IMG/VR virus record: IMGVR_UViG_3300028571_000830 | Span: 32,001 to 96,000 of that record | Reading direction: 5' to 3' (one strand) | Length of the DNA stretch: 64,000 bases | Source: a virus | Shown here: one piece after another, positions 31,625 through 54,465 of the stretch | Layout of the letters: the number at the start of each line of letters is the position of its first letter | How positions within the stretch are numbered: the stretch's first letter is position 1 | Position numbers and translations under genes: made by a program | The notes under the pieces: model-generated | The model's input: only the letters and a program-made list of their open reading frames with translations | Databases searched by the model: none | What the model was told of the DNA's origin: nothing

Positions 31625-32749
31625 TTAAGGAAGGTATATAATATAATTAGTTGCCCATGCTGGCTGAAAATTTGGATGTGATAAACCACCACCTGCATTC
31701 TGTATATTTACAGATACACCATCTTGTGCAGAACTACTTTTACCTAAAGTTGGTGTTATAGTAGATAACATCATCTCATAATCTAAATCTGATCCAGGAA
31801 CAGCTCTAGCTCTTGCAACATTATTTGTAGCATTCACTACTTGTCCAATAGTTGAATTTACATCTGTAGTATACATGAAGTGTGTATGAGGAGTGACTGT
31901 TACAGTGTTTGTATGTGTGTGTGCAGGAATTTGTGTTGTAGTTAAAAGTACATTGTTTGTGCCATTCACTGAGTTTAATGTATACGTAGGATTACCAAAT
32001 GCTGGATCCACTGCAGCAGACATTGCTCCTCCAGGAACACCTGTTGTTACACCTACACCCACTCTACCCCTTTTATCAGGAGTACCATTAGATCCATTAC
32101 ATATATAAATCTTATCCCATCCCAATCCTGCAATACCTGCTCCAGAACCATCAAAATTAGATAATGGACCATAGTATTCCACTGCAGTGAATGGAACCAT
32201 TTTAGCATTCTGCTGAGTGATTGGAGATATTGAATTTAGATAGGCTTGTATTAATGCATCTAGATCAGCAAGTTTAACATAGTTTGTATCTACGTCTACA
32301 GCAAGAGCTACTAATGCAGCATCTACATCACAAAGTTTTGTAATTACAGCTTGTAGAATATCATGTGTACCACTTGTAGCAGATACGCCTGTTAAACAAT
32401 CAACATCATAATTTCCTTCAAGAGCTGCAAGTTCTGCAACAATTACATCTATTTGAGCTTGTAAATCACAGGCTGCTTCAATCAATGCTGTGAAAAGGTT
32501 TAATGCATTTAAGTCTTCACAATCAGGAAGATATTGATTAACCACCTCACAAATAATTGCAGGATCTATAGTTAGTTTAATTCCTGTACCATCTAATGTA
32601 GATGTAAGAAATTCAATAAGAGCCTGTTCTACATAAGACAGAGAGTCTCCTGTTTGTATTCCCAAAACAGGAACATCTATTCCTGTGTATCTAACACACT
32701 TATCTGAGACAATCTCAGTACATCCATTATAGCAATTTGAACAAGACAT
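31625..32749 (-). CDS. Tail fibre protein with C-terminal tail-collar (MdpB/gp12-like) domain
   Basis: ICNGSNGTPDKRGR, IPAHTH, HPNFQPAWATNYII; coiled-coil middle. Confidence 0.7.
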   Translation of the reverse strand: MSCSNCYNGCTEIVSDKCVRYTGIDVPVLGIQTGDSLSYVEQALIEFLTSTLDGTGIKLTIDPAIICEVVNQYLPDCEDLNALNLFTALIEAACDLQAQIDVIVAELAALEGNYDVDCLTGVSATSGTHDILQAVITKLCDVDAALVALAVDVDTNYVKLADLDALIQAYLNSISPITQQNAKMVPFTAVEYYGPLSNFDGSGAGIAGLGWDKIYICNGSNGTPDKRGRVGVGVTTGVPGGAMSAAVDPAFGNPTYTLNSVNGTNNVLLTTTQIPAHTHTNTVTVTPHTHFMYTTDVNSTIGQVVNATNNVARARAVPGSDLDYEMMLSTITPTLGKSSSAQDGVSVNIQNAGGGLSHPNFQPAWATNYIIYLP

Positions 32750-43116: not shown

Positions 43117-43268
43117 CTTACTATTTTTTTAAATCTGTTAATTATTTTTTGAAGAAGAGTTTCTTTATATAAAAAGTTATATACATCTTTTGAACCATAC
43201 TTCTGTTGAACTTCTCTATCTAACATAGATGAATCATCTTCATTTAAAAAATCATCTATTATTGCCAT
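43107..43268 (-). CDS. 53-aa hypothetical between terL and portal (not in ORF track)
   Basis: MAIIDDFLNEDD...RFKKIVRWQ*; TAATG-coupled to the terL stop. Confidence 0.55.
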   Translation of the reverse strand: MAIIDDFLNEDDSSMLDREVQQKYGSKDVYNFLYKETLLQKIINRFKKIVRWQ

Positions 43269-46200
43269 TATATAAAAAGTTTATTTTTTCGTTTAGGAAA
43301 CATTCCTCTACTCTCTGTGAATAATCTATTTTTTTGTTTTGTGTTAAACATTGATTGAATTCTACCATCTCCTGCTGATCCAATTTTTCCCATAATAGGA
43401 TCCATTTTCATAGCTAATGCTACAGCTAACTCTGCAGCAATGATTCTATCAAAGTTACCCATCTCATTATATTGTATCATTTCTTCTAATAGAACAGGAT
43501 CAAATATCTTCACCATACCCTTTGTTTCAGAAATGATATTACCATCATCATCTTTCTCAACATGTAATACATCTTCTGTGTATTTCTTTAAACATCCATG
43601 CAGAAAACTTCTAATCTTATCAGCAGATCTATGTATACCATAATCACGTCTCACTGTTGTATTAGGTACTATTTCTTTTAACCAATCTGGTTGACGTTCT
43701 AAATAATGAGCATCTCCTTTAGCTATCATGTAATCTATAAAGGATATTTCATCGTTTTCACATAGAGCCCTTGCATTGTAATACTTAATAAGGAGTCTAG
43801 CTTGTTCTTCCCAGATTTCTTTTTTATCTGGTCTAGCTGTATAAGATGCTACAAACATATCTTGATACTTCTCACCAGATATAGCATGCATACGTTTATA
43901 TATGTATACAGATCCTAATGAACTAGAATATGCAGACTTACCTTGTCTATATGGATCCACTCCTGCAACATATAGTCCATAAGGAGGGGCTTCCATAGGA
44001 AACTCATATATAACTACAGGAGCATCTTTATCATCTGAATTTTTTAAAGGAAAGTTAGATATAGGAAGTTTATCTGTAAACTCGTGTTTGATATTTCCAT
44101 CATCACTAAATAATACAACAGGTGTTCCTGTTCTTTCATTTTGTAATAGTCTGGTTTTTTGTCTTTTAGCAGCTTCTATATCAAATATATTTGTATCTTC
44201 ATTCAAGAATATATCATCCACTTCAATTGGATAATACATTTTTTCTTTTAGATAGGCCATTCTATCTCCTGCTTTCTTTAGTCTTTCTAAATTAGATGTA
44301 ACAATTTCTGTAGCTTTTTCTTCATTAGAAACAAGCATAGTTACATTGTGTAAATCACTTTTAGCATCAGCATTTAAATACTCACCTAATGAAGAATCTT
44401 CTTTGGCTTCCATTCTATATTTATTAGAAATGAATAAGCCATGTATTCTTGTTGAGTCTTTATCGTTATTGTATTCTAAGAAGTTGAAATTGTTTACATC
44501 AAACATTAAACTCTTGGCATCCATGAATTTCTTCATATCACCTCCTGTACCTGTAAGAATAGGACTACATCCCCAACCAAATGGTGTTGTAAATCCTGGA
44601 GTGGCAGCTTGTAGTCCTCTTAAGAAAGATCCTTTACCTATCTCATCAATGATGAGTTTTCTAGGTTTTGTACCTGCAATAGCTTCCTCATTGTTTCCCT
44701 CATCTAAGTTACGTATAATGATTTGTGAGAAAGGGATTCTCTCTCCTCCTCTGGTCTTGATACCAAGTGTCACTTGATTCTTCCAGTTATCTTCAATTCT
44801 TTGCCATCTCCATGCTTCAGGGATGAAATTGAGTCCTTTATCTATCTTATCTGTAATAAGCTTTATATCTGGGGCATTCAGTCCAGCAATAATATTTTGT
44901 GAGTTCTCATCAAACGTAGCTCCCCAAGCAATATAAGAGCTTTCAATAACTGAGTTATGCGTCACAGTGTAATTTGTAGTTAAAAATAATTTATCTTCAT
45001 TATCTACTGTTATACACGTTGATTCTGCCAACTCATCTATTTCTATACTCTTTATAGTAGTCCAGTTAATCTTAAATTGTTTTCCTTTATTACCTATTTT
45101 AATATTATCTAATTTTCTCTGCAATCTAAATATTGGCTTTTCTGTAAAAATAGTAAATAACCAACCTGCACCACATTCTTTTCCATATAATTTAGGTGTA
45201 AATTCTTTTTTAGTTAAATTAATTCCAAGACTTCTGCATAATGAATAAAAATCATCCGATAATCTTTTATCAGTTGTTGTAAAGGAAATAGTTCCATTAG
45301 AATAAACTGTACCATCACTATCCATTAACCCTTGCAATAAAGACATTCTTTGTTCTTCGTTTCCTTCCAAGTAATTTAAAGGTATATGTTTATTTTTAAA
45401 TAAACATAGTTCATTAAACCAATTAGTTAATATATTGTATTTTAAAGTACCTCCTTTTATTCCTGAAGTAATAAAATACGTATCCGAATCCACTCTAACT
45501 TGTAAATCTAAATCAGTAGCGTATTTATAAATAAAAGCTACTGTTTGAGGATCTATAGTAGTTATACCTAAATTTCTAGAGTTACCGTCTCCTAACCATT
45601 GTCCTAAAAAATAAGGATCTATTGTTTGTTCTTTTTTAGAGTAATGAATTACATCATTATTAGGAATAGCAAAAAAACACTCTTCTTTATTTCTTGTAAC
45701 ACCGTCTTTATACCCATTATGTATTCTTGGTTTTTTATATATAGGTAATAAATCTTTTAAAGGAATGTCTTTTATTTTATTATATCTTTTATCTTTAACT
45801 CTCCATATATGATTCTCACAACAATAGATTTCTCTATTATCTTGAAGGGTCATTTTATAAGTTTGAATTTTACCTTGATGATATACTCCTGTTATTGTAG
45901 CTAAGTTTCCTGTATGATCAAATATTCTGTCACCTACACTAGCTTTTCCTATTTGTATATTTCCAGATTCTGTATATAATAATTCATCATTTCTTAAAGC
46001 TTTAGCTAAACGTCTAATGCCTAGAATAACTAAGCCTTTCTTTTCATTTTGAGCTCTATCTATTTCATTAGTTATCACCCATTCATTATCTCTAAGAAGA
46101 GGATTGGCATATTTTTGTGATATTCTTCCCCTATCATCTATAATATCCACCTCTGTGTGCCATATATTTAAATGCCAATAGAGAAATGGGTTTATATAAA

Positions 46201-46339
46201 CACCATCCATCATACATCCATTCAGACATATTTCTTTATGAAATTCATAGAAAGCATTATACTCTTGACTAGTTTTATCAGGAAGTCTTTTCTGATTTAT
46301 AAACCAGTCATTATAATCAATGCTAATTAAATCTGTCAT
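43268..46339 (-). CDS. terL: Terminase large subunit, intein-containing
   Basis: Walker A RRLAK|S, Walker B LIIDEIG, TGTGG, nuclease AGVDPY...NFDR. Confidence 0.92.
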   Translation of the reverse strand: MTDLISIDYNDWFINQKRLPDKTSQEYNAFYEFHKEICLNGCMMDGVYINPFLYWHLNIWHTEVDIIDDRGRISQKYANPLLRDNEWVITNEIDRAQNEKKGLVILGIRRLAKALRNDELLYTESGNIQIGKASVGDRIFDHTGNLATITGVYHQGKIQTYKMTLQDNREIYCCENHIWRVKDKRYNKIKDIPLKDLLPIYKKPRIHNGYKDGVTRNKEECFFAIPNNDVIHYSKKEQTIDPYFLGQWLGDGNSRNLGITTIDPQTVAFIYKYATDLDLQVRVDSDTYFITSGIKGGTLKYNILTNWFNELCLFKNKHIPLNYLEGNEEQRMSLLQGLMDSDGTVYSNGTISFTTTDKRLSDDFYSLCRSLGINLTKKEFTPKLYGKECGAGWLFTIFTEKPIFRLQRKLDNIKIGNKGKQFKINWTTIKSIEIDELAESTCITVDNEDKLFLTTNYTVTHNSVIESSYIAWGATFDENSQNIIAGLNAPDIKLITDKIDKGLNFIPEAWRWQRIEDNWKNQVTLGIKTRGGERIPFSQIIIRNLDEGNNEEAIAGTKPRKLIIDEIGKGSFLRGLQAATPGFTTPFGWGCSPILTGTGGDMKKFMDAKSLMFDVNNFNFLEYNNDKDSTRIHGLFISNKYRMEAKEDSSLGEYLNADAKSDLHNVTMLVSNEEKATEIVTSNLERLKKAGDRMAYLKEKMYYPIEVDDIFLNEDTNIFDIEAAKRQKTRLLQNERTGTPVVLFSDDGNIKHEFTDKLPISNFPLKNSDDKDAPVVIYEFPMEAPPYGLYVAGVDPYRQGKSAYSSSLGSVYIYKRMHAISGEKYQDMFVASYTARPDKKEIWEEQARLLIKYYNARALCENDEISFIDYMIAKGDAHYLERQPDWLKEIVPNTTVRRDYGIHRSADKIRSFLHGCLKKYTEDVLHVEKDDDGNIISETKGMVKIFDPVLLEEMIQYNEMGNFDRIIAAELAVALAMKMDPIMGKIGSAGDGRIQSMFNTKQKNRLFTESRGMFPKRKNKLFI
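44954..46000 (-). mobile_element. 349-aa intein with LAGLIDADG endonuclease in terL Walker A
   Basis: Starts ALRNDELL, block B CCENHIW, LGQWLGDG and LQGLMDSDG, block F STCITVD, ends VTHN|S. Confidence 0.93.
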
Positions 46340-46668
46340 TTTCTATTCTTTAACCAATTTTCAGCCATTGTAGACATCTCACCATTACCCCTCACTTCCA
46401 CTTTTGCTTCTTCCACTTTACGTAGTTTATCTACCACTTCTAATAAGGCTAGATAATTTTTCATGGTTTCTTGAATAAATTTTCCTTGAGATTCAATGGA
46501 TGCAATCACCATAGGCATTGTTCCACCTCTAGCTGTAGGCTTCCACTCAATCCTATCTTTAATAAGATTTAGAGGATTGGCATCAACATAAGCTTTCCAT
46601 GAACTAAGCTGTTCTTCAGCCCAATCAAGCTCTGTATTAATGTATGTAGTTTTAGTAGCTTTCGCCAT
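46336..46668 (-). CDS. Conserved protein upstream of terL (possible small terminase)
   Basis: 110 aa helical; overlaps the terL start. Confidence 0.4.
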   Translation of the reverse strand: MAKATKTTYINTELDWAEEQLSSWKAYVDANPLNLIKDRIEWKPTARGGTMPMVIASIESQGKFIQETMKNYLALLEVVDKLRKVEEAKVEVRGNGEMSTMAENWLKNRK

Positions 46669-46936
46669 TATCTTCTTCTTCTAATAAGATGTCATTTAAA
46701 TTCATTCCATCTCTAATAATATCTTCAATATCATTAGAATGTTGCACATCTAGTTCTAATTCAGTTTTGTATTTTGTAAGAATGTATAACAATTCTTTAT
46801 CTGATATTCCCCATGCATCTCCTTCCCCATCAAGGGCTGTTGACAAATGCTTTCCTAAATTATATGTAGGAAAACTATTGTGCATCTCATTGAGCAAATC
46901 TATTATCTGTGTATAATAGTTTGTTTTGATTCTCAT
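46652..46936 (-). CDS. Hypothetical protein
   Basis: Tightly coupled ORF in the operon. Confidence 0.6.
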   Translation of the reverse strand: MRIKTNYYTQIIDLLNEMHNSFPTYNLGKHLSTALDGEGDAWGISDKELLYILTKYKTELELDVQHSNDIEDIIRDGMNLNDILLEEEDNGESY

Positions 46937-46941
46937 GTTAT

Positions 46942-47169
46942 TTATATTAATTGATTTAAATCTTCATCAGATAAATTGTTTTCTTCTTCTTCTTCATCCA
47001 TCATATATTCTTCACGAACATATATAGAAATTACATCTTGACTATCATTAGATGTTCCTGTAACATCTATATAATCAGCTCCTTTGTTATATAGATCAGC
47101 CAGTATTTCCATTAGACTTTCCAATGGAATTTTTTGGAGTGTTAGTGTCTTGTTGTTCTTCTTTTCCAT
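46942..47169 (-). CDS. Hypothetical acidic protein
   Basis: GADYID motif; coupled ORF. Confidence 0.55.
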   Translation of the reverse strand: MEKKNNKTLTLQKIPLESLMEILADLYNKGADYIDVTGTSNDSQDVISIYVREEYMMDEEEEENNLSDEDLNQLI

Positions 47170-47449
47170 ATCCTTTAAGCATCTTTTGTTCTTCTTTTAA
47201 ACTAACCAATCCCATCCATTCACCTATTGGACACTCACAAGATAGACATTTTGTTTTAGCATCTATATTACATCCACAATGTGTGCAATGATCATCTGGT
47301 CTTATTGGTGTATTGTGATGTTTTGAATGTAAAGGACATTCATTACATATCAATGTTCTCTCCAGAGATGTCTTTTGTATTAATTCTTTCAGGGATGCTG
47401 GTGGAAGAAGCTTGTTTCTCCATCCCTCATATATCTGACTCATTTTCAT
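47096..47449 (-). CDS. Cys-rich Zn-finger protein
   Basis: RxxICxxC...CTHCGC...KTKCLSCECPIGEW. Confidence 0.65.
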   Translation of the reverse strand: MKMSQIYEGWRNKLLPPASLKELIQKTSLERTLICNECPLHSKHHNTPIRPDDHCTHCGCNIDAKTKCLSCECPIGEWMGLVSLKEEQKMLKGYGKEEQQDTNTPKNSIGKSNGNTG

Positions 47450-47798
47450 TGTTGGTTTCTATTTTTGGTTTTAATACACTTATGTTCAATGTAACACTTT
47501 CATATTTCAGTCTTGCATTGTTACGTCTTTGTTCAGACAAAGAATCATCATTCATTAGTCTTTCAAACAATGCTTTTTGTGAAAGAAGTTTTTTCATCTT
47601 CTTAACAGCTTTCTTATCATTAAATACAAACTTACCAAATCCAGAAATCTCTACACTCTTAGTAGATGCCATAGCTTGATTAGCAGACTGAAACTGATGT
47701 GAAATAATAGCATCTATTGTAAACTCAGGAATCAACATCCTTACAGACATTTTCCTAATAAGAAAGTCTTTAATTGTTAAACTCTTAGGCCTCTCCAT
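47427..47798 (-). CDS. HU/IHF-like DNA-binding protein
   Basis: SVEISGFGKF. Confidence 0.65.
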   Translation of the reverse strand: MERPKSLTIKDFLIRKMSVRMLIPEFTIDAIISHQFQSANQAMASTKSVEISGFGKFVFNDKKAVKKMKKLLSQKALFERLMNDDSLSEQRRNNARLKYESVTLNISVLKPKIETNNENESDI

Positions 47799-48150
47799 GA
47801 AATAGTTTAACTTCTAATATAACATCATCATTACTAAAATTCAAAAGAATAACAGGATTCACTTTAATTTTACTCCCATTCTTCACTAATACACCCATTT
47901 TCTTTAATTTAGAAATAATGTTATTAATCGTAGCACTTGTTGTGTCATACTTCTTACAAAAATCTTCTCGTATATACTTATAAGACATATTACCACTAAT
48001 AGCTGTAAAAGCTATCAATTGTATTTCTCTTTGTGTAAGCTTTAAATCGTTAATTGCTGAAAGAATAGCATAATACTTTTCTGCTAATAAAAAACTATCA
48101 TTTTTTATCAATTTAAGCTTTTGAACAATTGTTTTTTTGGTTTGTTCCAT
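47785..48150 (-). CDS. Winged-HTH DNA-binding protein
   Basis: LTQREIQL...TINNIISKLKKMGVLVK. Confidence 0.7.
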   Translation of the reverse strand: MEQTKKTIVQKLKLIKNDSFLLAEKYYAILSAINDLKLTQREIQLIAFTAISGNMSYKYIREDFCKKYDTTSATINNIISKLKKMGVLVKNGSKIKVNPVILLNFSNDDVILEVKLFHGEA

Positions 48151-48226
48151 AATCTATTACGTAATTAATACAAAGATGGGAACATTATGTAACATAATCA
48201 AATACATAATTCGATGAATAGCTATA

Positions 48227-48523
48227 TTATGCATTAATATCTTTATGAAACAATACAGTAAAATTCACTAACACTAATCCAATTACCAATCTATCTATAC
48301 ACTGATATCCATTTTCATACATCCTATTATATGATACACCTAGATTATAATAAGGACTATCTAACACATTAATCTCCACTAATACTTCCATCCTCATATT
48401 CCCATATGTTCCATAATATAAAGAAATAATAACCAACAATAACGAAACACTTAACAATAACTCAATTCCTGTCATCATATACAGATGTGTGTGAGTACTA
48501 TATGACCCACCCTCCACCCTCAA
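48227..48523 (-). CDS. Hypothetical membrane protein (true start probably near MMTG)
   Basis: Hydrophobic LLLSVSLLLVIISLYY. Confidence 0.45.
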   Translation of the reverse strand: MRVEGGSYSTHTHLYMMTGIELLLSVSLLLVIISLYYGTYGNMRMEVLVEINVLDSPYYNLGVSYNRMYENGYQCIDRLVIGLVLVNFTVLFHKDINA

Positions 48524-48697
48524 AGGTCTACATGTTAAACGACATAACCAAATTTATTTTAAAAATAATTTTTTTTCAAAATATAAGGGGTCTATATTAG
48601 TGAGAGAGTTGACCACTTCCAATTACAACCCCTCCTACAAATTATCGAATTGGGGATACTCCCCATAGTATTAACAAACAATTAAACAACAAAAAAA

Positions 48698-49060
48698 ATG
48701 AAAAAGGAATTAAATTTAAAAGGAAGAGATGTATTAAAAATTAAGGCATTGCCAGGCGAACTTGACTACGACAAAGAAAGTAAGATGAAAGGCAAAAAGT
48801 ACAGAAGATTTGCCTACGATAATGCAGTGTTTGTTGCCAATACAGAAGATTCCTTTTGTAAACAGTTCGATGAAGATAAGTTGTACAGTGTTGATCTACT
48901 TTGGGAACAAAATGGGGACAAATCACAACTTAGTTTAATGAACAACACAAGTATTGATCGTGAGATTAACATGGCAAGGGCAGAAGCCACCTTGACCAGC
49001 ATTATGCACAATGTTAAGGCAGAAGCTATTGATGAGGCATTGCTTGATGCTATTAGCTAA
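48698..49060 (+). CDS. First gene of the rightward (early) arm, unknown function
   Basis: 120 aa; A-rich leader; followed by its own terminator. Confidence 0.75.
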   Translation: MKKELNLKGRDVLKIKALPGELDYDKESKMKGKKYRRFAYDNAVFVANTEDSFCKQFDEDKLYSVDLLWEQNGDKSQLSLMNNTSIDREINMARAEATLTSIMHNVKAEAIDEALLDAIS

Positions 49061-49061
49061 T

Positions 49062-49084
49062 AAAAGGGGCTTTGCCCCTTTTTT
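49062..49084 (+). terminator. Intrinsic terminator (possibly bidirectional)
   Basis: AAAAGGGGC-TTT-GCCCCTTTTTT. Confidence 0.85.
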
Positions 49085-49294
49085 CATATAAAGGGTGGGA
49101 GAATTGTGCCCAATTGGGTGGGATATTAAATCCTACTCATTAACCCTTTATTTATTACATAATTAACTATTAATTAGATAGTTATGTGTGTAAAAGAATA
49201 GATGTGTAACCCTCTCAGACATATAACATGCTCTTCTCAACATCATTAAATCAATACACTAATTAATATACATATAGCTTTAAACATAGAAATC

Positions 49295-49492
49295 ATGATA
49301 ACAATAAGTGAACTTATAGAATATGCATACAATAGATGTGCAATAGAAATAGATATTCTAATAGAAAAGAAACATTTAATACAAGAACAATTTAATAATG
49401 GATTGATTGATTATATGGATTATTCTTTTCTTATAGAAGATGTTCAGAATGATATAGATATTATATGTCCTATAGATATTAGTTTTATTTAA
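49295..49492 (+). CDS. Hypothetical protein
   Basis: ORF with AAACAnAGAAATCATG leader. Confidence 0.55.
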   Translation: MITISELIEYAYNRCAIEIDILIEKKHLIQEQFNNGLIDYMDYSFLIEDVQNDIDIICPIDISFI

Positions 49493-49509
49493 ACCTCTTT
49501 ATATATATT

Positions 49510-49734
49510 ATGGAAACACGTATTTTAGGTATTGTAGGGAACACTCTATATATACAAGGATTTTATGCTGGTGATTATTCTCATCAGCTTATTATTCCTA
49601 AACATGAATTAGATGCATTTATAGATTCTGGAATTCCTGTATATGATAATATTAATTATATAGAATGTCAAGAACATGGAATGACATATGATCAATATAT
49701 GGAATATTTAGAACAATATAATAAAGAATATTAA
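49510..49734 (+). CDS. Hypothetical protein
   Basis: ORF track; collinear with the early arm. Confidence 0.55.
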   Translation: METRILGIVGNTLYIQGFYAGDYSHQLIIPKHELDAFIDSGIPVYDNINYIECQEHGMTYDQYMEYLEQYNKEY

Positions 49735-49739
49735 GTTAT

Positions 49740-49948
49740 TTCCTTTTGCACACACATCATTTAAGACTGATTAATTGACTATTATTATATCTGGATAATC
49801 CTTTGGGTAAAGATGTGATATTGCCAGTCAGCGTTTTAATCAGTCTTCCAAGAATGAGACAGTTGTAATGAACAAGACCAAGTTGAGGTTAACGTGACCT
49901 TGTAAAAATCGCTTGTGAGGTTTGTTACAACTGAGTGTGTAAAGGGAA
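49740..49948 (+). ncRNA. Structured RNA, copy 1 of a repeated motif
   Basis: 14-bp closing stem 49740-53/49935-48; stems 49763-74/49836-47 and 49860-73/49920-33; core shared with 51175-51462; strand inferred from G-U pairs. Confidence 0.65.
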
Positions 49949-50032
49949 TTGTTGCATATTACATACATAACTATGGAGATATGTATTGTAGGGAACACAT
50001 GCTTCTTATTATAATTATCACCCAATATACAG

Positions 50033-50114
50033 TTATATAAAGTTGTAATGTGTGTAGAGAGAAGGATATTCCCTTAGTATTCTTTTATTCATGACACATT
50101 ACAGCTTTATATAA
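50033..50114 (+). repeat. 21-bp inverted repeat/long hairpin
   Basis: TTATATAAAGTTGTAATGTGT / ACACATTACAGCTTTATATAA, one G-U pair. Confidence 0.8.
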
Positions 50115-50132
50115 AATTAAAAAAACAAATCT

Positions 50133-50519
50133 ATGATTATATATAAATTTGCCTTATACACATTATTATTAAGTTATAATCCATGTGATGTATTCACTTA
50201 TTATAATGTTACAGAAATGCATGGATTAAATTTAAAAGATTGTCAAGCATATAATAATACATCTCAAGATGCTTATTTTGCTGGTTGGTCTAATTATATA
50301 CCTAATTCTAAAGGGTATAAAAAAGATGATGCAAAATTTGTATTTATTAATCTCAATAGATGTAATAGTGATGTTGAAACATTTGCTTTAGTAATGCACG
50401 AATTAATGCATCAATCATTTGATATTCACAAGAATAAAATTAACAAAGAAGAAGAAATAATAACATGGGCAGAAAAAGAAGCACATTTAGTAATTAAAAT
50501 AATAAATCTAAACAAATGA
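50133..50519 (+). CDS. Small zincin-like metallopeptidase
   Basis: MHELMH plus downstream EEEI. Confidence 0.6.
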   Translation: MIIYKFALYTLLLSYNPCDVFTYYNVTEMHGLNLKDCQAYNNTSQDAYFAGWSNYIPNSKGYKKDDAKFVFINLNRCNSDVETFALVMHELMHQSFDIHKNKINKEEEIITWAEKEAHLVIKIINLNK

Positions 50520-50836
50520 AAACAATAGAAATACAAATATTAGCACAAGATGTTAATAATGCAGGAAACTTTTTAGATAGTAATAATTGTATTTTAGCTA
50601 CAGCTATTAAAAGACAATTTAATGTAACAGCTGTTATTGAAGATATATTGTATTCATATATTATTAATGTTAGATATAATCATGATACATATGGTGTTAA
50701 TCAATACGAAGAAGACATCAGATTAGCAAGAGGTGTTCCTGATGATACATTAATTAGAACTATTAATTTACAACTATATAAGAAAGATGGCTGGATTAGA
50801 AAAGTAATTGATAAATTTAGGTCTTATTGGTACTAA
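50516..50836 (+). CDS. Hypothetical protein
   Basis: NCILATAIKR; ATGA overlap with the previous gene. Confidence 0.6.
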   Translation: MKTIEIQILAQDVNNAGNFLDSNNCILATAIKRQFNVTAVIEDILYSYIINVRYNHDTYGVNQYEEDIRLARGVPDDTLIRTINLQLYKKDGWIRKVIDKFRSYWY

Positions 50837-50944
50837 TACACAAACCCACTGTATTAATTGTGATAAAATACACATAAAAGATAGTAAAGTTTGGTCAAAA
50901 CATATCAGAACTAACAGAAATATTAAATCAAAAATCAAAACAAA

Positions 50945-51091
50945 ATGAAAAAACACAGAACTAAAACATTCTATCTACACTGTAAGACAGAGAGTAGATA
51001 CCAATTGATTAAAGAATATTTAATGACTAAATACTCTGTATATACAGCAGTATTTGAGAATGGCTATGGTCATTTTAGAATAGTGTATTAA
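50945..51091 (+). CDS. 48-aa hypothetical (not in ORF track)
   Basis: MKKHRTKTFYLHC...FRIVY* with A-rich leader. Confidence 0.45.
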   Translation: MKKHRTKTFYLHCKTESRYQLIKEYLMTKYSVYTAVFENGYGHFRIVY

Positions 51092-51174
51092 AGCATAGCC
51101 CAAATTTAACTGATTATTAGGCTATAAACATTAGAATCAGTCCTTAGAGTGGTGGTTGATAGGAATATCATAAA

Positions 51175-51462
51175 CTCTGTAATGCACCATTCTCATGTGG
51201 ATATAAAGACTTCTTAGTACGATGTAGAGCAAGATAGTAGTTGCAGGCTAAGATGTGAAACCACACTGATTAAGTTTGAAAATAATACTACAGATTATGC
51301 ATGTAGTTCTTAATCAGTCTCCCAAGGATGAGCAGTTGTAAAATGGAATAGCTGACCAGCTACGTGTGACAGCTCTGATATCTGACTCTTAACTGAGAGG
51401 ATATTATTCAAGTGTCTATTCACGCAATAACAAGTACTGGTACAACTTGAGTGCAGAGGGAA
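51175..51462 (+). ncRNA. Structured RNA, copy 2, with twister-ribozyme-like core
   Basis: TAA-TGCA-CC ... CTCAT ... TCCCAAGG-ATGAG ... TGCA-GAG-GG; stems 51265-74/51309-18 and 51334-40/51441-47. Confidence 0.6.
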
Positions 51463-51578
51463 AACATTAACCAATTAAACAAATGCATGCGTATTAACTA
51501 TTCATGGTTTTTTTTAATCAAACGTATGTGTTTGTTTTTTTGGTTATATTTACACACACAATTTAAACACAAAATATT

Positions 51579-51767
51579 ATGATTAATTTTTTATGGATGC
51601 TATATATAGCATTGATGTTGTTTGCTACAGTTTCGACAATTATTGATATTGTTGATGTAAGAGCATCTGATAATAAGTATATTTTTAATGATAAAGACTA
51701 TTTTATACCTGGAATTGTTATCACTTGTCTATTATGGGCAAGTTTTATTGTTTATTATTTAAATTAA
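51579..51767 (+). CDS. Small two-TM membrane protein
   Basis: Two hydrophobic helices. Confidence 0.6.
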   Translation: MINFLWMLYIALMLFATVSTIIDIVDVRASDNKYIFNDKDYFIPGIVITCLLWASFIVYYLN

Positions 51768-51774
51768 AATCATT

Positions 51775-51996
51775 ATGAAAACATTATTATTGTTAGCAAT
51801 ATACATTGCTTCATTTGTTATTATTTTCTTTATTGTATCATTTCCTCCATGTATATTTGTTGGATCTTACAAAGCTGTTATTTATAATAGCACCTGGCAA
51901 TTGATGTATTCATTCTTTATTGGATGGTGGATGGCATCATTTCCAGCAAGAGAGTATTATTTATTGCATAAAGAGTATTTTGATAAAATATTTTAA
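51775..51996 (+). CDS. Small membrane protein
   Basis: Hydrophobic N-terminus and aromatic second helix. Confidence 0.6.
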   Translation: MKTLLLLAIYIASFVIIFFIVSFPPCIFVGSYKAVIYNSTWQLMYSFFIGWWMASFPAREYYLLHKEYFDKIF

Positions 51997-52007
51997 ATTA
52001 AATCATT

Positions 52008-52088
52008 ATGAAAAGATCAGCAGAACAAAATATTAAATTATTTTTAGCCATGATATTGTTCATGGCTATTCTATCAGTATTAGTTTAA
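52008..52088 (+). CDS. 26-aa membrane peptide (not in ORF track)
   Basis: MKRSAEQNIKLFLAMILFMAILSVLV*; same AATCATTATG leader as 51775. Confidence 0.45.
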   Translation: MKRSAEQNIKLFLAMILFMAILSVLV

Positions 52089-52156
52089 AACAGAATAATA
52101 ACATTAATAAGCAATGTGTATATAATAATGCACATTGCTTATTTTATTATATTAAT

Positions 52157-52363
52157 ATGATAACTAAAGAACAATTAGAATCAATTAATTTTAGAACCAA
52201 AGATGGAACATTATATCATGATTATTATAGATTTGAGTTTGAATACAATATTAAATCACAGGATCTATATAGTTTTAATGATGTAAATGGAAAAACAAAC
52301 TATCTTTGTCCTGTAATAGACATTAATCAATTAAAGGAATTAACAGAATATTATATTAAATAA
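52157..52363 (+). CDS. Hypothetical protein
   Basis: ORF track. Confidence 0.55.
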   Translation: MITKEQLESINFRTKDGTLYHDYYRFEFEYNIKSQDLYSFNDVNGKTNYLCPVIDINQLKELTEYYIK

Positions 52364-52393
52364 AGTGGAGGGGAGTCAGTAACAAATTAAAAT

Positions 52394-52563
52394 AGTCAGG
52401 TGGCGGAATTGGTAGACGCACACATTAACTCGCAAGGTTGATATTGTATGATAGACGTTAGCGGACATCATACAGGAGTGGCAAAACGCTGGTGGTACGA
52501 TTGCAATCGTAAATGGAAGAGAAAACCACAAATGGCCTACAGGTTCGAATCCTGTCCTGACTA
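52394..52563 (+). ncRNA. tRNA-like RNA (Leu-type D arm, T arm, acceptor stem) with 118-nt structured insert
   Basis: AGTCAGG/CCTGACT, GCGGAATTGGTAGACGC, ACAGG-TTCGAAT-CCTGT, A73. Confidence 0.8.
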
Positions 52564-52585
52564 CAAATAAACTTAAATTTAAACT

Positions 52586-52786
52586 ATGAAAGCAAAAGAA
52601 AAATTAAAAAAGAAAGACATTTGTTATTGTGATAAATGTTCATCTCCAATAGGGAGTAAACAAAAAATCTACAAAATTGAAAAATTGTATGCTGGAGAAA
52701 TTGTTAATGTATTAGTTTGTAATGATTGTAGTAACGAACATCAAGCTCAATTAACATGGTCTATAAATGCTCAAACACAAATTTAA
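52586..52786 (+). CDS. Small Zn-ribbon protein
   Basis: CDKC...CNDC. Confidence 0.6.
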   Translation: MKAKEKLKKKDICYCDKCSSPIGSKQKIYKIEKLYAGEIVNVLVCNDCSNEHQAQLTWSINAQTQI

Positions 52787-52799
52787 AAAAAAAATAACT

Positions 52800-52907
52800 A
52801 TGAAAAAGATTATAACGAATGTATTAGGAGTTTGTTTAGGAATTTTAGCAATCAGTTTTATAATAATAGGTATAATTGATGCAATATTATATTTATTAGT
52901 CGATTGA
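52800..52907 (+). CDS. 35-aa membrane peptide (not in ORF track)
   Basis: MKKIITNVLGVCLGILAISFIIIGIIDAILYLLVD*. Confidence 0.45.
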   Translation: MKKIITNVLGVCLGILAISFIIIGIIDAILYLLVD

Positions 52908-52965
52908 TATAAATTTAGTAACCAATTTTATAATGTATAATTATGTATTTAGAAGCAGAATTAGT

Positions 52966-53325
52966 ATGCGAATAGAAGTGTCAAATGGAGAGATAGTGGA
53001 TAAGTACACTATCCTCCAAATTAAAGCTCTAATGATTAAAGATGAAGCTAAATTAATTAACATTAATAAAGAACTATATTATTTAACACCTATTGTAGAA
53101 GAATTAAAAATAGATGACTCTAAAAGAAAAGCTTTAATGAAAGTGAATCTTTCTTTATGGATGGTGGAAAATGAAATTAGAGAATGTGAAGCTTCATCAA
53201 GATTTGATGATTATTTTGTTGCTCTTGCAATACAGGTGTATAAACTTAATGATGAACGTGCTGCAATTAAAAAACAAATTAACATTGAAACAAATTCAAA
53301 CCTAATAGAAGAAAAATCATATTAA
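52966..53325 (+). CDS. DUF6165-like protein (start reassigned)
   Basis: MRIEVSNGEIVDKYTILQIK...NDERAAIKKQIN...EEKSY. Confidence 0.7.
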   Translation: MRIEVSNGEIVDKYTILQIKALMIKDEAKLININKELYYLTPIVEELKIDDSKRKALMKVNLSLWMVENEIRECEASSRFDDYFVALAIQVYKLNDERAAIKKQINIETNSNLIEEKSY

Positions 53326-53326
53326 C

Positions 53327-53770
53327 ATGTATGTAGAAGCAGAATTAGTATTAAAGAGCTATAAGCCTCTTAAACTAGAAGAAGGAATGTTGTTTATTAA
53401 TAAAATAGCAAGAACAGATGCTGTTGAACTATTTATTCTTGAAGAACTTCCAGATGATGAAGAAAAGTTTGTAGTGACACATGGTTATCCTGTAGAACCA
53501 TACATCATCCAGCATGAATTATTAAATAATGTAGAAACACCTATTATTCTTGCTATACCAGAACAAATTGGTTGGTGGGATGATGGTGATGATGTAGATG
53601 AATTAAGAGAAATGTCTATAGAAGAGATTAATAATGTTATTAGTCAATTCACTGGATTATTGGAAATATATCTGGAAGATGATGAAATAGGTGATCCACT
53701 ATTAATAGAAGATAGAGTGATGCTTAGATATCTTACAGATGAAGAAGATTGGGAAGACAATGAAGACTAG
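53327..53770 (+). CDS. Acidic hypothetical protein
   Basis: 147 aa; PEQIGWWD. Confidence 0.65.
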   Translation: MYVEAELVLKSYKPLKLEEGMLFINKIARTDAVELFILEELPDDEEKFVVTHGYPVEPYIIQHELLNNVETPIILAIPEQIGWWDDGDDVDELREMSIEEINNVISQFTGLLEIYLEDDEIGDPLLIEDRVMLRYLTDEEDWEDNED

Positions 53771-53793
53771 TGTGTGATGTGAGAGGGAGATGT

Positions 53794-53817
53794 GCAGAAA
53801 TGCCTCTCCCTTTTTTT
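53794..53817 (+). terminator. Intrinsic terminator
   Basis: GGGAGA...TCTCCC followed by T7. Confidence 0.65.
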
Positions 53818-53856
53818 ATTATTAAACAAAGAAATCAAATTTTAAACAAAGAAATC

Positions 53857-54465
53857 ATGAAAGTGCAATTTAATCATGATCATGCCTTGGCTAAAGATGA
53901 TACAAGATGGTATCTGTTAGAACAAATGGAAGATCTTCATAAGTATAAACCTAAACTACTCACACTACCAGCAAATAATTTTCTGTTTGAACACTTAGTA
54001 TCCTCTAGATACCATAGTGCTTCAATAGATTGTGTAGAGTATAACAAGGCTGTTTATGAAAAAGCTAAAACTCATAAACTTAATAAATATAACTATGAGT
54101 ACTTAGATGTATTTGATAAAGCACATGCAAATCCAGGAGTGTATGATCTTATATGGATAGATTTATGTGGTAATCTATCTTTATCTAATATGAACAATCT
54201 TATTAGTGTTATACAAAATACTTTAAAATCTCATTCTATACTAGCATTTACATTTACAGCTGGTAGAGAGTTTGGATTAAATAAGATAATGGAAGTTTAT
54301 GGATGTAAAGAACCTAAAGAATTTAGATTTGAGTTCTTTCCTAATTTATTAGTTAGATTAGGTAAACTATCTCATCCCAAATTCAGACTAGACAATCTTA
54401 TTAAGTATAAAAACAATAAAAACAATTCTACACCAATGTGTATGTTCGTATTTAAAACCTATTAA
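53857..54465 (+). CDS. Class I SAM-methyltransferase-like fold protein (start reassigned)
   Basis: IDCVEYN, YDLIWIDLCG; the track's extension crosses a terminator. Confidence 0.45.
   Translation: MKVQFNHDHALAKDDTRWYLLEQMEDLHKYKPKLLTLPANNFLFEHLVSSRYHSASIDCVEYNKAVYEKAKTHKLNKYNYEYLDVFDKAHANPGVYDLIWIDLCGNLSLSNMNNLISVIQNTLKSHSILAFTFTAGREFGLNKIMEVYGCKEPKEFRFEFFPNLLVRLGKLSHPKFRLDNLIKYKNNKNNSTPMCMFVFKTY

Follow-up and report, generated by a model that had tools for sequence, protein, structure and literature searches.

Do two similar stretches in a block of small phage genes encode a self-cleaving RNA and, if so, of which kind? The stretches, copy 1 and copy 2, lie in a 64,000-nucleotide window (positions 32,001 to 96,000 of IMG/VR record IMGVR_UViG_3300028571_000830). 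A sequence-only reading had put them forward as an expanded variant of the twister ribozyme or as a non-coding RNA family derived from it. Twister is among the best-studied small ribozymes, while its biological role is still open. The class paper is said to be that of Roth and colleagues from 2014.

Two related elements in the window

Copies 1 and 2 had been described as sharing an ordered series of short blocks, and when the letters were re-read every listed block was found in its place. Two instances of the 23-nt core TTAATCAGTCTYCCAAGRATGAG were located, at window positions 49836 and 51310 and each on the + strand, as compared with an expectation of 0.00 matches in shuffled sequence; there is no further occurrence in the whole 116,917-bp record. 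A model built from minimal relatives (R1) scored copy 2 at 34.5 bits and copy 1 at 31.3 bits, with no other credible match across the record; three more matches at E ≤ 1 (13.9–15.7 bits) are noise. One of the three is the P5 palindrome in reverse reading.

Minus-strand open reading frames at 49840-50025 and 51310-51474 were rejected as genes because conservation follows base pairs rather than codons. G-U pairs are common in P1 and in pseudoknot T2; read from the opposite strand they would become A-C mismatches, and the RNA is therefore read on the + strand. The best explanation for both copies is that they are RNA genes on the + strand, set in a rightward block of small phage genes. Comparison with relatives supports their probable membership in a large, phage-only branch of the known twister self-cutting RNA.

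Predicted architecture of copy 2

Copy 2 has all of the twister elements in order (Table 1), and these match feature by feature the architecture given in the accessible part of PMC5408937. Copy 2 is predicted to be a type-P1 twister-class self-cleaving ribozyme, a reading to which we assign a probability of about 0.8; cleavage, its site and any effect on the message are part of the prediction. G51456, directly 3' of P2, is the predicted active-site guanine, and GGG at 51458-51460 is the T1 partner of CCC at 51321-51323. L4 ends in CCCAAGG, and the pair closing P4 is U-A. The U^AA feature and the active-site G are used here as defined in the accessible text of PMC5408937.

Table 1. Elements and predicted structural features of copies 1 and 2, in window coordinates
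Feature	Position	Strand	Support
Copy 1	49740-49948	+	
Copy 1, 5' strand of 14-bp closing stem, UUCCUUUUGCACAC; replaces P1, L1 and P2; no UAA	49740..49753	+	
Copy 1, P4-like helix UCAUU/AAUGA around one arm hairpin (GACUGAUUAA/UUAAUCAGUC) and L4 remnant UUCCAAG	49757..49857	+	fold z = -4.95
Copy 1, P5 CAGUUGUAA/UUACAACUG, 56-nt insert	49860..49933	+	fold z = -3.58
Copy 1, 3' strand of closing stem, GUGUGUAAAGGGAA; AAG at the place of twister GAG	49935..49948	+	
Copy 2, twister layout	51180-51460	+	
Copy 2, upstream strand CUCUGUA, able to pair with UGCAGAG 51452-51458	51175..51181	+	in minimum-energy fold
Copy 2, U^AA, 5' strand of L1; predicted scissile bond U51180-A51181	51180..51182	+	UAA in 97/103 unique family elements
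Copy 2, P2 5' strand UGCA, partner 51452-51455	51183..51186	+	4/4 P2 pairs with two-sided changes, 100% of cells paired, n = 32 arm-bearing
Copy 2, L2 dinucleotide CC, 5' half of T2, partner GG 51326-51327	51187..51188	+	T2 pair counts in relatives
Copy 2, P4 5' strand CUCAU, partner AUGAG 51328-51332	51192..51196	+	5/5 P4 pairs with two-sided changes, 100% paired, n = 69
Copy 2, arm helix P4a: outer GUGG/CCAC, conserved internal loop AUAUAAAG/GAAA, inner helix ACUUCUUAG/CUAAGAUGU, variable tip	51197..51264	+	
Copy 2, arm helix P4b: CUGAUUAAG/CUUAAUCAG, variable tip	51266..51317	+	covariation in 21 sequences
Copy 2, L4 strand UCUCCCAAGG: CCC 51321-51323 to T1, GG 51326-51327 to T2	51318..51327	+	T1 100% paired, n = 32
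Copy 2, P4 3' strand AUGAG	51328-51332	+	
Copy 2, P5: base CAGUUGUA/UACAACU(U)G, one bulged U, 100-nt variable insert	51333..51449	+	
Copy 2, P2 3' strand UGCA (51452-51455), then GAGGG (51456-51460), 3' strand of L1	51452..51460	+	GAGGG in 101/103 elements, partly pattern-fixed

Several observations count against the ribozyme reading. P1 had been called poor, and it is: the flanks are unpaired in the family register, with at most 1/6 pairs as judged by eye from the flank letters. As a whole, copy 2 is not more stable than shuffled sequence (z = -0.9; 16/100 shuffles fold as well), and its minimum-energy fold contains a competing helix, CUCUGUA/UGCAGAG, that would bury both the cleavage site and the active-site G. 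The case for copy 2 as a real structure consequently rests on comparative evidence and not on energy. P5 of copy 2 folded alone did not give the expected base helix, and the arm in isolation has a minimum-energy fold with the same P4a structure. The relative L001 has other letters where copy 2 has CUCUGUA. According to the portions of the literature available, twister is active without P1, which is dispensable (PMC5408937), P0 and P5 are optional in type P1 (PMC5408937, PMC11662667), and many insertions and imperfections are tolerated (PMC11662667). Many relatives have a hairpin upstream, at the place of P0.

Covariation among relatives

At least 120 stretches in viral contigs belong to the family. 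Counts refer to 103 unique elements; 27 of the 143 pattern matches were unparsable and were left out, the apparent insertions of L050 and L074 were excluded as parser artefacts, and L142, which has a reduced arm, was kept out of alignments A4 and A5. Because the letters of the P5 base, of GCAGAGG or of CCAAG were set by the search patterns, their invariance is not evidence.

In 69 minimal relatives 91.4% of cells pair, a level reached by 0/500 shuffles; the figure was 84.9% after shuffling and 31–46% when the partners were slid. P4 is fully paired with changes on both sides of every pair (Table 1), and its closing pair is CG in 53 elements, AU in 7, UA in 7 and UG in 2. P1 pairs in 58.9% of cells, with double changes at 6/6 pairs. 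T2 is 99.3% paired in this set, its outer pair being CG in 64, UG in 4 and UA in 1; among the 32 arm-bearing elements the outer pair is CG in 21, UG in 6 and unpaired in 5. The arm-bearing set also showed T1 to be 100% paired, with CG in 29, UA in 2 and AU in 1 at the third pair; these variants came from a search that left L4 and the 3' strand unfixed. P2 pairs without exception in the same set (Table 1). The P5 base is 98.8% paired (n = 69), but its sequence was fixed by the search patterns; it is also conserved in elements found without fixing it.

The arm was analysed in 21 sequences. The outer helix of P4a is 100% paired, with exchanges between GC and AU in 8 and a change from UA to CG in 1, while P4b is paired in 94% of cells and has two-sided changes at 7/9 pairs. 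The arm module occurs only in twister contexts (21/21 stretches). Taken together, covariation supports the predicted P1, P2, P4, arm helices and both pseudoknots. Two details singled out by the sequence-only reading in copy 2 are borne out by these data: the CC/GG pseudoknot is the norm in the family and covaries, and the two extra helices in the P4 loop form a conserved, covarying module.

Comparison with Rfam and known ribozymes

Rfam models miss this twister branch. At the gathering cut-offs the window gave 0 matches and 16 related loci gave tRNAs only. At E ≤ 10, the segment 49600-51600 gave 14 weak matches, none to a ribozyme. Searching the genome of the window and five related genomes with RF03160 returned nothing at the elements and one 11.9-bit match elsewhere. 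Three relatives were tested as short stretches; two of them (L051, L102) had no twister match in Rfam. For the third, a compact relative searched against 4227 Rfam families, the only correct match was twister-P1 at 18.8 bits (cut-off 67.2; E = 0.057; model positions 1-68), in which UAA, P2, GAGGG and P1 are aligned. This compact relative also aligns to the Rfam consensus as far as that is printed, ccuuUAAcgCcGC...gGcgGAGGGaagg. The suggestion that the RNA was new is weakened, at low score and indirectly, by this match to a named family, while for the window itself no match was obtained.

The family and type P1 twister (RF03160) have in common the order P1-U^AA-P2-L2-P4-L4-P4'-P5-P2'-GAGGG-P1', a 4-bp P2, a T1 of three C-G pairs between L4 and L1, a T2 joining two bases of L2 to two of L4, an A immediately following the scissile bond and a G following P2'. 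They differ at other points. T2 of the family is CC/GG instead of the conserved GC/GC, and the conserved GC of L2 is absent. The closing pair of P4 is C-G, U-A or A-U, whereas the accessible part of PMC5408937 describes an "essentially invariant" G-C. L4 of the family has one extra base before CCCAAGG, and the P5 base is conserved in sequence, in contrast to ordinary twister P5, for which the available text of PMC11662667 gives no consensus. Scores of family members against RF03160 are far under the Rfam cut-off or absent. Both halves of the proposal, an expanded twister variant and a twister-derived non-coding RNA family, are supported by the architecture and the covariation.

Twister-sister (RF02681), as far as the accessible part of PMC5660989 describes it, resembles the family in that a rod of P1, L1 and P2 ends at a three- or four-way junction carrying stem-loops and that L1 and a hairpin loop contain conserved bases. 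It has no pseudoknots and cleaves the other L1 strand, as stated in the available portion of PMC5408937, whereas here both pseudoknots covary. A search at E ≤ 10 with RF02681 gave no match in the window segment or in the short stretches of the three relatives. The two supported pseudoknots and this lack of a match speak against a twister-sister identity.

Our literature search found no link between twister and crAss-like phages and no tested precedent for the L4 insertion; the supplementary alignments of PMC11662667 and PMC10085705 could contain members.

Copy 1, a zipped twin

Copy 1 had been described as lacking UAA and as zipped into a stem, which the letters and the fold confirm. Its outer strands, UUCCUUUUGCACAC (49740-49753) and GUGUGUAAAGGGAA (49935-49948), pair to form a 14-bp stem into which P2 is merged. 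The place of UAA is taken by a paired UUU, an A aligns with the active-site G (AAGGG), and the GGG pairs with the 5' strand instead of forming T1. The L4 remnant, UUCCAAG, has one T1 cytosine fewer than CCCAAGG. The folding energy of copy 1 is -74.7 kcal/mol (z = -7.1), and 0/200 shuffles were as stable. Judged by these letters, copy 1 is almost certainly a derivative of the same RNA that is unable to cut itself. With Watson-Crick pairs in place of the active site, it would not be cut and would persist as a stable three-way-junction structure.

Copy 1 could instead be a decaying twister pseudogene with no function of its own, given that cleavage site, active-site G and one T1 cytosine are all gone from it and that its arm, present in the window, is missing in the close relative L062. 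We regard this as rather unlikely. Changes accumulating at random would open up the fold; what is seen is that the three L1 positions of either strand now pair to give the 14-bp stem at z = -7.1. L062 (at two places) and L058 share this zipped 5' strand, and the wider zipped class retains G-U-containing stems and tetraloop-capped hairpins.

Exchange of modules between elements

One element of L001 consists of the 5' half of copy 2 and the 3' half of copy 1, joined in the shared core, and the flanking genes are rearranged to match the hybrid; the P5 insert of copy 1 recurs there behind a copy-2-type 5' half. L062 differs from the window by whole modules at both elements. Its counterpart of copy 2 has a zipped, non-cleaving-type 5' strand, and its counterpart of copy 1 lacks the arm hairpin. 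As the counterpart of copy 2 is zipped, cutting at this place would be dispensable, at least in L062. Judging from the L001 junction, there is recombination within the shared core.

Distribution and genomic context

P5 inserts range from 14 to 240 nt across the family, and a two-helix arm of 70–290 nt is present in L4 of 22/103 elements, about one in five. Five related genomes have one or two copies each; up to four are clustered in L150. Family members sit between co-oriented small open reading frames: the nearest upstream frame is on the strand of the element in 76/88 cases and the nearest downstream frame in 84/91, while 88/103 elements do not overlap any frame of 60 aa or more. A tRNA neighbourhood was rejected as the general context, with 2/103 elements within 500 nt of a tRNA predicted by ARAGORN. 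In 46300-54000, neither promoter nor terminator scans did better than they did on shuffled sequence, and ACACAATTTAAAC, a motif downstream of copy 2, recurs in the window no more often than chance predicts.

Scanning genome contigs with a pattern of 18 fixed bases gave 19 stretches, against roughly 17 that chance alone would yield. With R1, elements were confirmed in 8 of these 19 loci, all of them on MAG contigs with assorted phylum labels, which are probably mis-binned phage DNA. The other 11 stretches were dropped, including those on contigs labelled Scytonema, Thermincola and Mucilaginibacter. Pattern CAGTCNNCCAAGNATGAG matched 41 stretches, of which L001 was the sole relative; the others, apparently fortuitous hits within genes, were dropped.

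No match was obtained by blastn of the 2.2-kb region against the phage collection or of the minimal element against 50,697 GenBank phage records. The sequence-only reading had looked to Crassvirales, a placement that is loosely supported: the phage portal is 26–28% identical to those of crAss-like phages, but the only match of the capsid in the phage collection is a Leptolyngbya phage (25.8%). As far as seen, the branch is confined to environmental crAss-like phage contigs. Bacterial twisters and hammerheads have been located near phage genes, as described in the accessible parts of PMC6765202 and PMC10085705.

Proposed mechanism and alternatives

During transcription, L4 of copy 2 would dock on L1 through T1 (CCC with GGG) and on L2 through T2 (GG with CC). 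Docking would bring A51181 and G51456 to the bond between U51180 and A51181, and internal transesterification would cut it. The upstream message, with the reading frames at 50133-51091, would end in a 2',3'-cyclic phosphate, while the downstream message, with the frames from 51579, would start with a 5'-OH and have the whole folded ribozyme as a cap-like 5' structure. This would allow the two halves of the polycistron to have different stability and translation. The 121-nt arm of P4a and P4b would be an accessory domain off the 5' side of L4.

An extension of this mechanism, which we consider decidedly unlikely, is a natural allosteric twister. The arm would be a sensor whose invariant internal loop (AUAUAAAG/GAAA and a conserved U-U) binds a small molecule or a factor from phage or host, and it would gate T1 and T2; the zipped twins would be alleles kept "always off" by selection, with sites toggled by swapping the 5' strand through core recombination.

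Alternatively, the family might be a structured non-coding RNA that shares the ancestry or shape of twister with no member cutting, that binds protein, stabilises messages or carries the P5 insert, and that keeps the "catalytic" letters for folding. Non-cleaving forms are indeed common and look maintained. At least 12/113 unique model matches lack UAA or L4, 18 stretches fit the zipped-type pattern with the P4 hairpin capped by stable tetraloops, and L062 has a zipped version at the place of copy 2. Even where the search left the P5 base unfixed, its sequence is conserved, unlike that of ordinary twister P5 as described in the available text of PMC11662667. On the other side, UAA is kept in 97/103 and GAGGG in 101/103 elements, and T1 and T2 stay paired by compensatory changes, a pattern that an active site predicts and that goes beyond the needs of a scaffold. 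The zipped forms differ exactly at the catalytic positions, which suggests that the other elements keep these for catalysis. We hold this alternative to be highly unlikely.

The repeats can scarcely be cassettes that act as DNA, in recombination or regulation, to shuffle small early genes and whose RNA fold is incidental, a reading likened to the promoter-stem-loop cassettes of T4-type phages and favored by the L001 hybrid with its rearranged flanking genes and by the whole-module differences of L062, since G-U pairs and compensatory changes, including those in long-range pseudoknots, are unexplained by a DNA function and recombination at a conserved 30–50-nt core is an expected by-product of such repeats.

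Implications

Genome annotation misses this branch because it is invisible to the standard catalogue. As a predicted set of twisters, the family offers natural experiments. In one, the pseudoknot loop of a twister bears a structured insertion of 70–290 nt. In another, the swapped T2 letters and the variable closing pair of P4 test what the true requirements are. In a third, matched cleaving-type and non-cleaving-type versions occupy the same genomic place in phages that are 90–98% identical. These matched allele pairs make the question of what cutting does for the phage directly testable.

Genomic setting of the two elements

The virus record is 116,917 bp long, and the window covers its bases 32001-96000. 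Its portal protein shows 26-28% identity to crAss-like phage portals, and the single match of its capsid protein in the 'phages' collection is to a Leptolyngbya phage (25.8%). Judged from these two proteins, the phage appears to be a distant, uncultured crAss-like phage. Leftward genes, among them capsid, portal and terminase, extend up to 46.3 kb. From about 47 kb they are followed by small rightward ORFs without a PHROG match. Both copies are located in this rightward group and share its strand. The sequence-only reading had described two dispersed copies of a structured RNA with a twister-like core; when its letters were checked, every block that it named was found in place. Exactly two occurrences of the shared core were counted in the window, and no more than these two in the whole record, against 0.00 expected by chance.

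Positions of the elements and neighboring features (window coordinates unless preceded by an L handle, which denotes a related locus)
Feature	Position	Strand	Remarks
Copy 1	49740-49948	+	derivative without UAA
Copy 2	51180-51460	+	type-P1 twister layout
Competing helix of copy 2	51175-81 with 51452-58	+	CUCUGUA with UGCAGAG
Imperfect hairpin	50035-50114		80 nt, in the gap between copy 1 and the following ORF
Terminase ORF	43268-46339	-	1023 aa
Segment lacking in L058	44958-46001		about 1,044 bp, inside the terminase ORF
Hybrid element	L001:10900-11700	-	one element
Window region compared with the hybrid	49836-51341		two elements and three intervening ORFs
Most compact relative	L080:261-325
Element beside tRNA-Gln	L153:1917-2081	-	tRNA gene begins 6 nt past ribozyme 3' end
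Mixed cluster	L150:4900-6167	-	three non-cleaving-type elements, then one intact-type, within 1.3 kb
Tandem cluster	L054:9874-10483		three intact-type elements back to back; GAGGG of one abuts UAA of the next
L4-less sub-type	L103:630-824; L122:11051-11215; L238; others		NAA-UGCA and GAGGG kept

Two neighboring features were also noted. For the imperfect hairpin Rfam gave only weak, miRNA-precursor-like matches; the best scored 26.4 bits (E = 0.0044) against a cut-off of 110, and such matches signify a long hairpin and no more. The hairpin is retained in the related locus L062, inside a block of 98.6% identity. Two separate parts of the terminase match terminase profiles, and the close relative L058 lacks exactly the tabulated segment, a pattern that would fit an intein.

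Family size and distribution

Scanning viral contigs with a pattern running from L4 through P4' into the beginning of P5 identified 20 stretches, all with the same architecture, and a 3'-strand pattern identified at least 120. Among the 3'-strand matches listed, 116 elements (103 unique) were parsed; 27 further pattern matches were unparsable and were left out. The majority of the parsed elements among these matches have the compact layout U^AA-UGCA-CC-AYW-P4-UUCCCAAGG-P4'-P5-AG-UGCA-GAGGG-P1', many with an upstream hairpin, and 22 of the 103 unique elements carry a two-helix arm (P4a and P4b) as in copy 2.

With R1, a covariance model built from 69 compact members, copy 2 scored 34.5 bits and copy 1 scored 31.3 bits. 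No further credible match to R1 was found in the whole record, where three others at E <= 1 scored 13.9-15.7 bits. The model gave 120 matches in 100 related loci, and 1-2 elements per genome, clustered in every case, in five related 100-124-kb genomes. A search of 50,697 GenBank phage records with a minimal element found nothing, and prokaryote genome collections yielded eight true family matches, all on MAG contigs. The labels of these contigs (among L193-L211) include Pseudomonadota, Roizmanbacteria, Saccharibacteria, Neisseriaceae and Bacteroidia; the contigs probably belong to phages and were placed in the bins of unrelated genomes.

Fold and covariation

In the 69-member compact alignment, P4 is 100% paired with both-side changes at each of its five pairs, P1 shows covariation at 6/6 pairs with 59% of cells paired, and pseudoknot T2 is 99% paired. 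Over the whole structure 91.4% of cells pair, compared with 84.9% in shuffles, none of 500 attaining the observed value; slid partners, as a control, pair in 31-46% of cells. The 32-member arm-bearing alignment showed 100% pairing of P2, with double changes at 4/4 pairs, and of pseudoknot T1. C-G makes up the third T1 pair in 29 members, U-A in two and A-U in one, the variants coming from an arm-only search that made no selection on L4 or the 3' strand. That search found the arm module in a twister context at 21/21 stretches and nowhere else. In an alignment of the arm from 21 members, the outer helix of P4a is 100% paired, with G-C replaced by A-U in eight, its inner helix holds a conserved U-U in 19, and P4b has double changes at 7/9 pairs. 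Invariance of the P5 base, GCAGAGG and CCAAG is no proof of constraint, because the search patterns fixed those letters; P5 varies in divergent members retrieved by R1.

Comparison with twister

In the review PMC5408937, twister is defined by stems P1, P2 and P4, with P0, P3 and P5 optional; T1 joins L4 to L1, and T2 joins two L4 bases to the conserved GC of L2. Further defining features are a U-A scissile step with a conserved A, and an active-site G; P1 is reported to be dispensable. Every feature so defined is present in copy 2 except P1, with T2 kept as a pairing in which CC takes the place of the conserved GC. The family differs from twister in four ways: T2 pairs CC with GG in place of GC with GC, the G-C pair under L4 described as 'essentially invariant' varies, L4 is one base longer, and the arm is inserted at its 5' side. 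Owing to these four differences the Rfam models fail on the family. The single informative match was on the most compact relative, which scored 18.8 bits against twister-P1 (E = 0.057, cut-off 67.2). Twister-P1 was the only family aligned over its full model on this relative, with UAA, P2, GAGGG and P1 in register. The family was therefore filed as a variant branch, with predicted twister-like cleavage and a shared fold, and not as a catalogued member. The literature search found no paper on this branch; supplements or the original class paper could include members.

Predicted activity of copy 2

The catalytic and pseudoknot letters of copy 2 are all intact, and its arm folds in isolation exactly as in the comparative structure. 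P1 is missing, the bulged P5 base is not formed when P5 is folded alone, and the minimum-energy fold contains the competing helix, which would bury the cleavage site and G51456. Together the missing P1, the competing helix and the bulged P5 base are predicted to lower the odds of efficient cutting.

Copy 1 and related zipped forms

The L1 positions of copy 1 are zipped up: UUU stands in place of UAA and AAG in place of GAG, and these letters now pair with each other. UUCCAAG replaces CCCAAGG, and the partner of GGG is the 5' CC. The outcome is a three-way junction closed by a 14-bp stem (z = -7.1). Related zipped forms occur once in L058 and twice in L062. A wider class has UAACC-tetraloop-GGUGAG in place of the P4/L4 hairpin; 18 stretches, with G-U pairs in their stems, match a dedicated pattern. 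Zipped forms often lie immediately upstream of an intact element. Simple decay would be an alternative origin, but the changes create pairs instead of destroying them, which argues for a retained structure.

In the L4-less sub-type, CCC or CUC just 5' of AA pairs with GGG, so that the T1 helix is formed in cis by the 5' flank and a 2x2 AA/GA internal loop remains. Such elements may have a rewired active site or may be dead forms.

Recombination and possible function

The L001 hybrid combines the 5' half of copy 2 with P5 and the 3' half of copy 1, the junction falling inside the shared core. Its arrangement relative to the window indicates gain or loss of a gene cassette through recombination within the core of the ribozyme. 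The window and L062 are collinear and 90-98% identical; in L062 the arm hairpin is missing from the copy 1 counterpart, and the copy 2 counterpart has a zipped 5' strand. From the hybrid and these module differences, the conserved core is a recombination point as well, and the predicted cleaving or non-cleaving state varies between near-identical phages.

The elements are intergenic and oriented as the neighboring ORFs; an ARAGORN tRNA lies within 500 nt of only two of the 103 elements among the matches listed, the L153 element being one. Many relatives have a hairpin abutting the cleavage site, sometimes with a U-tract, at the position of the optional P0 of twister as described in PMC11662667. 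A hairpin resembling a terminator, its tail rich in U, lies within the 25 nt preceding UAA in L077, L129, L046, L088, L108, L112 and others; it directly adjoins the cleavage site, and the U-tract also serves as the 5' strand of P1. Transcripts that read through would be cut a few bases past such a hairpin. Bacterial and phage ribozymes have been proposed (PMC6765202) to process polycistronic messages into segments whose fates differ, and the most economical reading is that this family may do the same.
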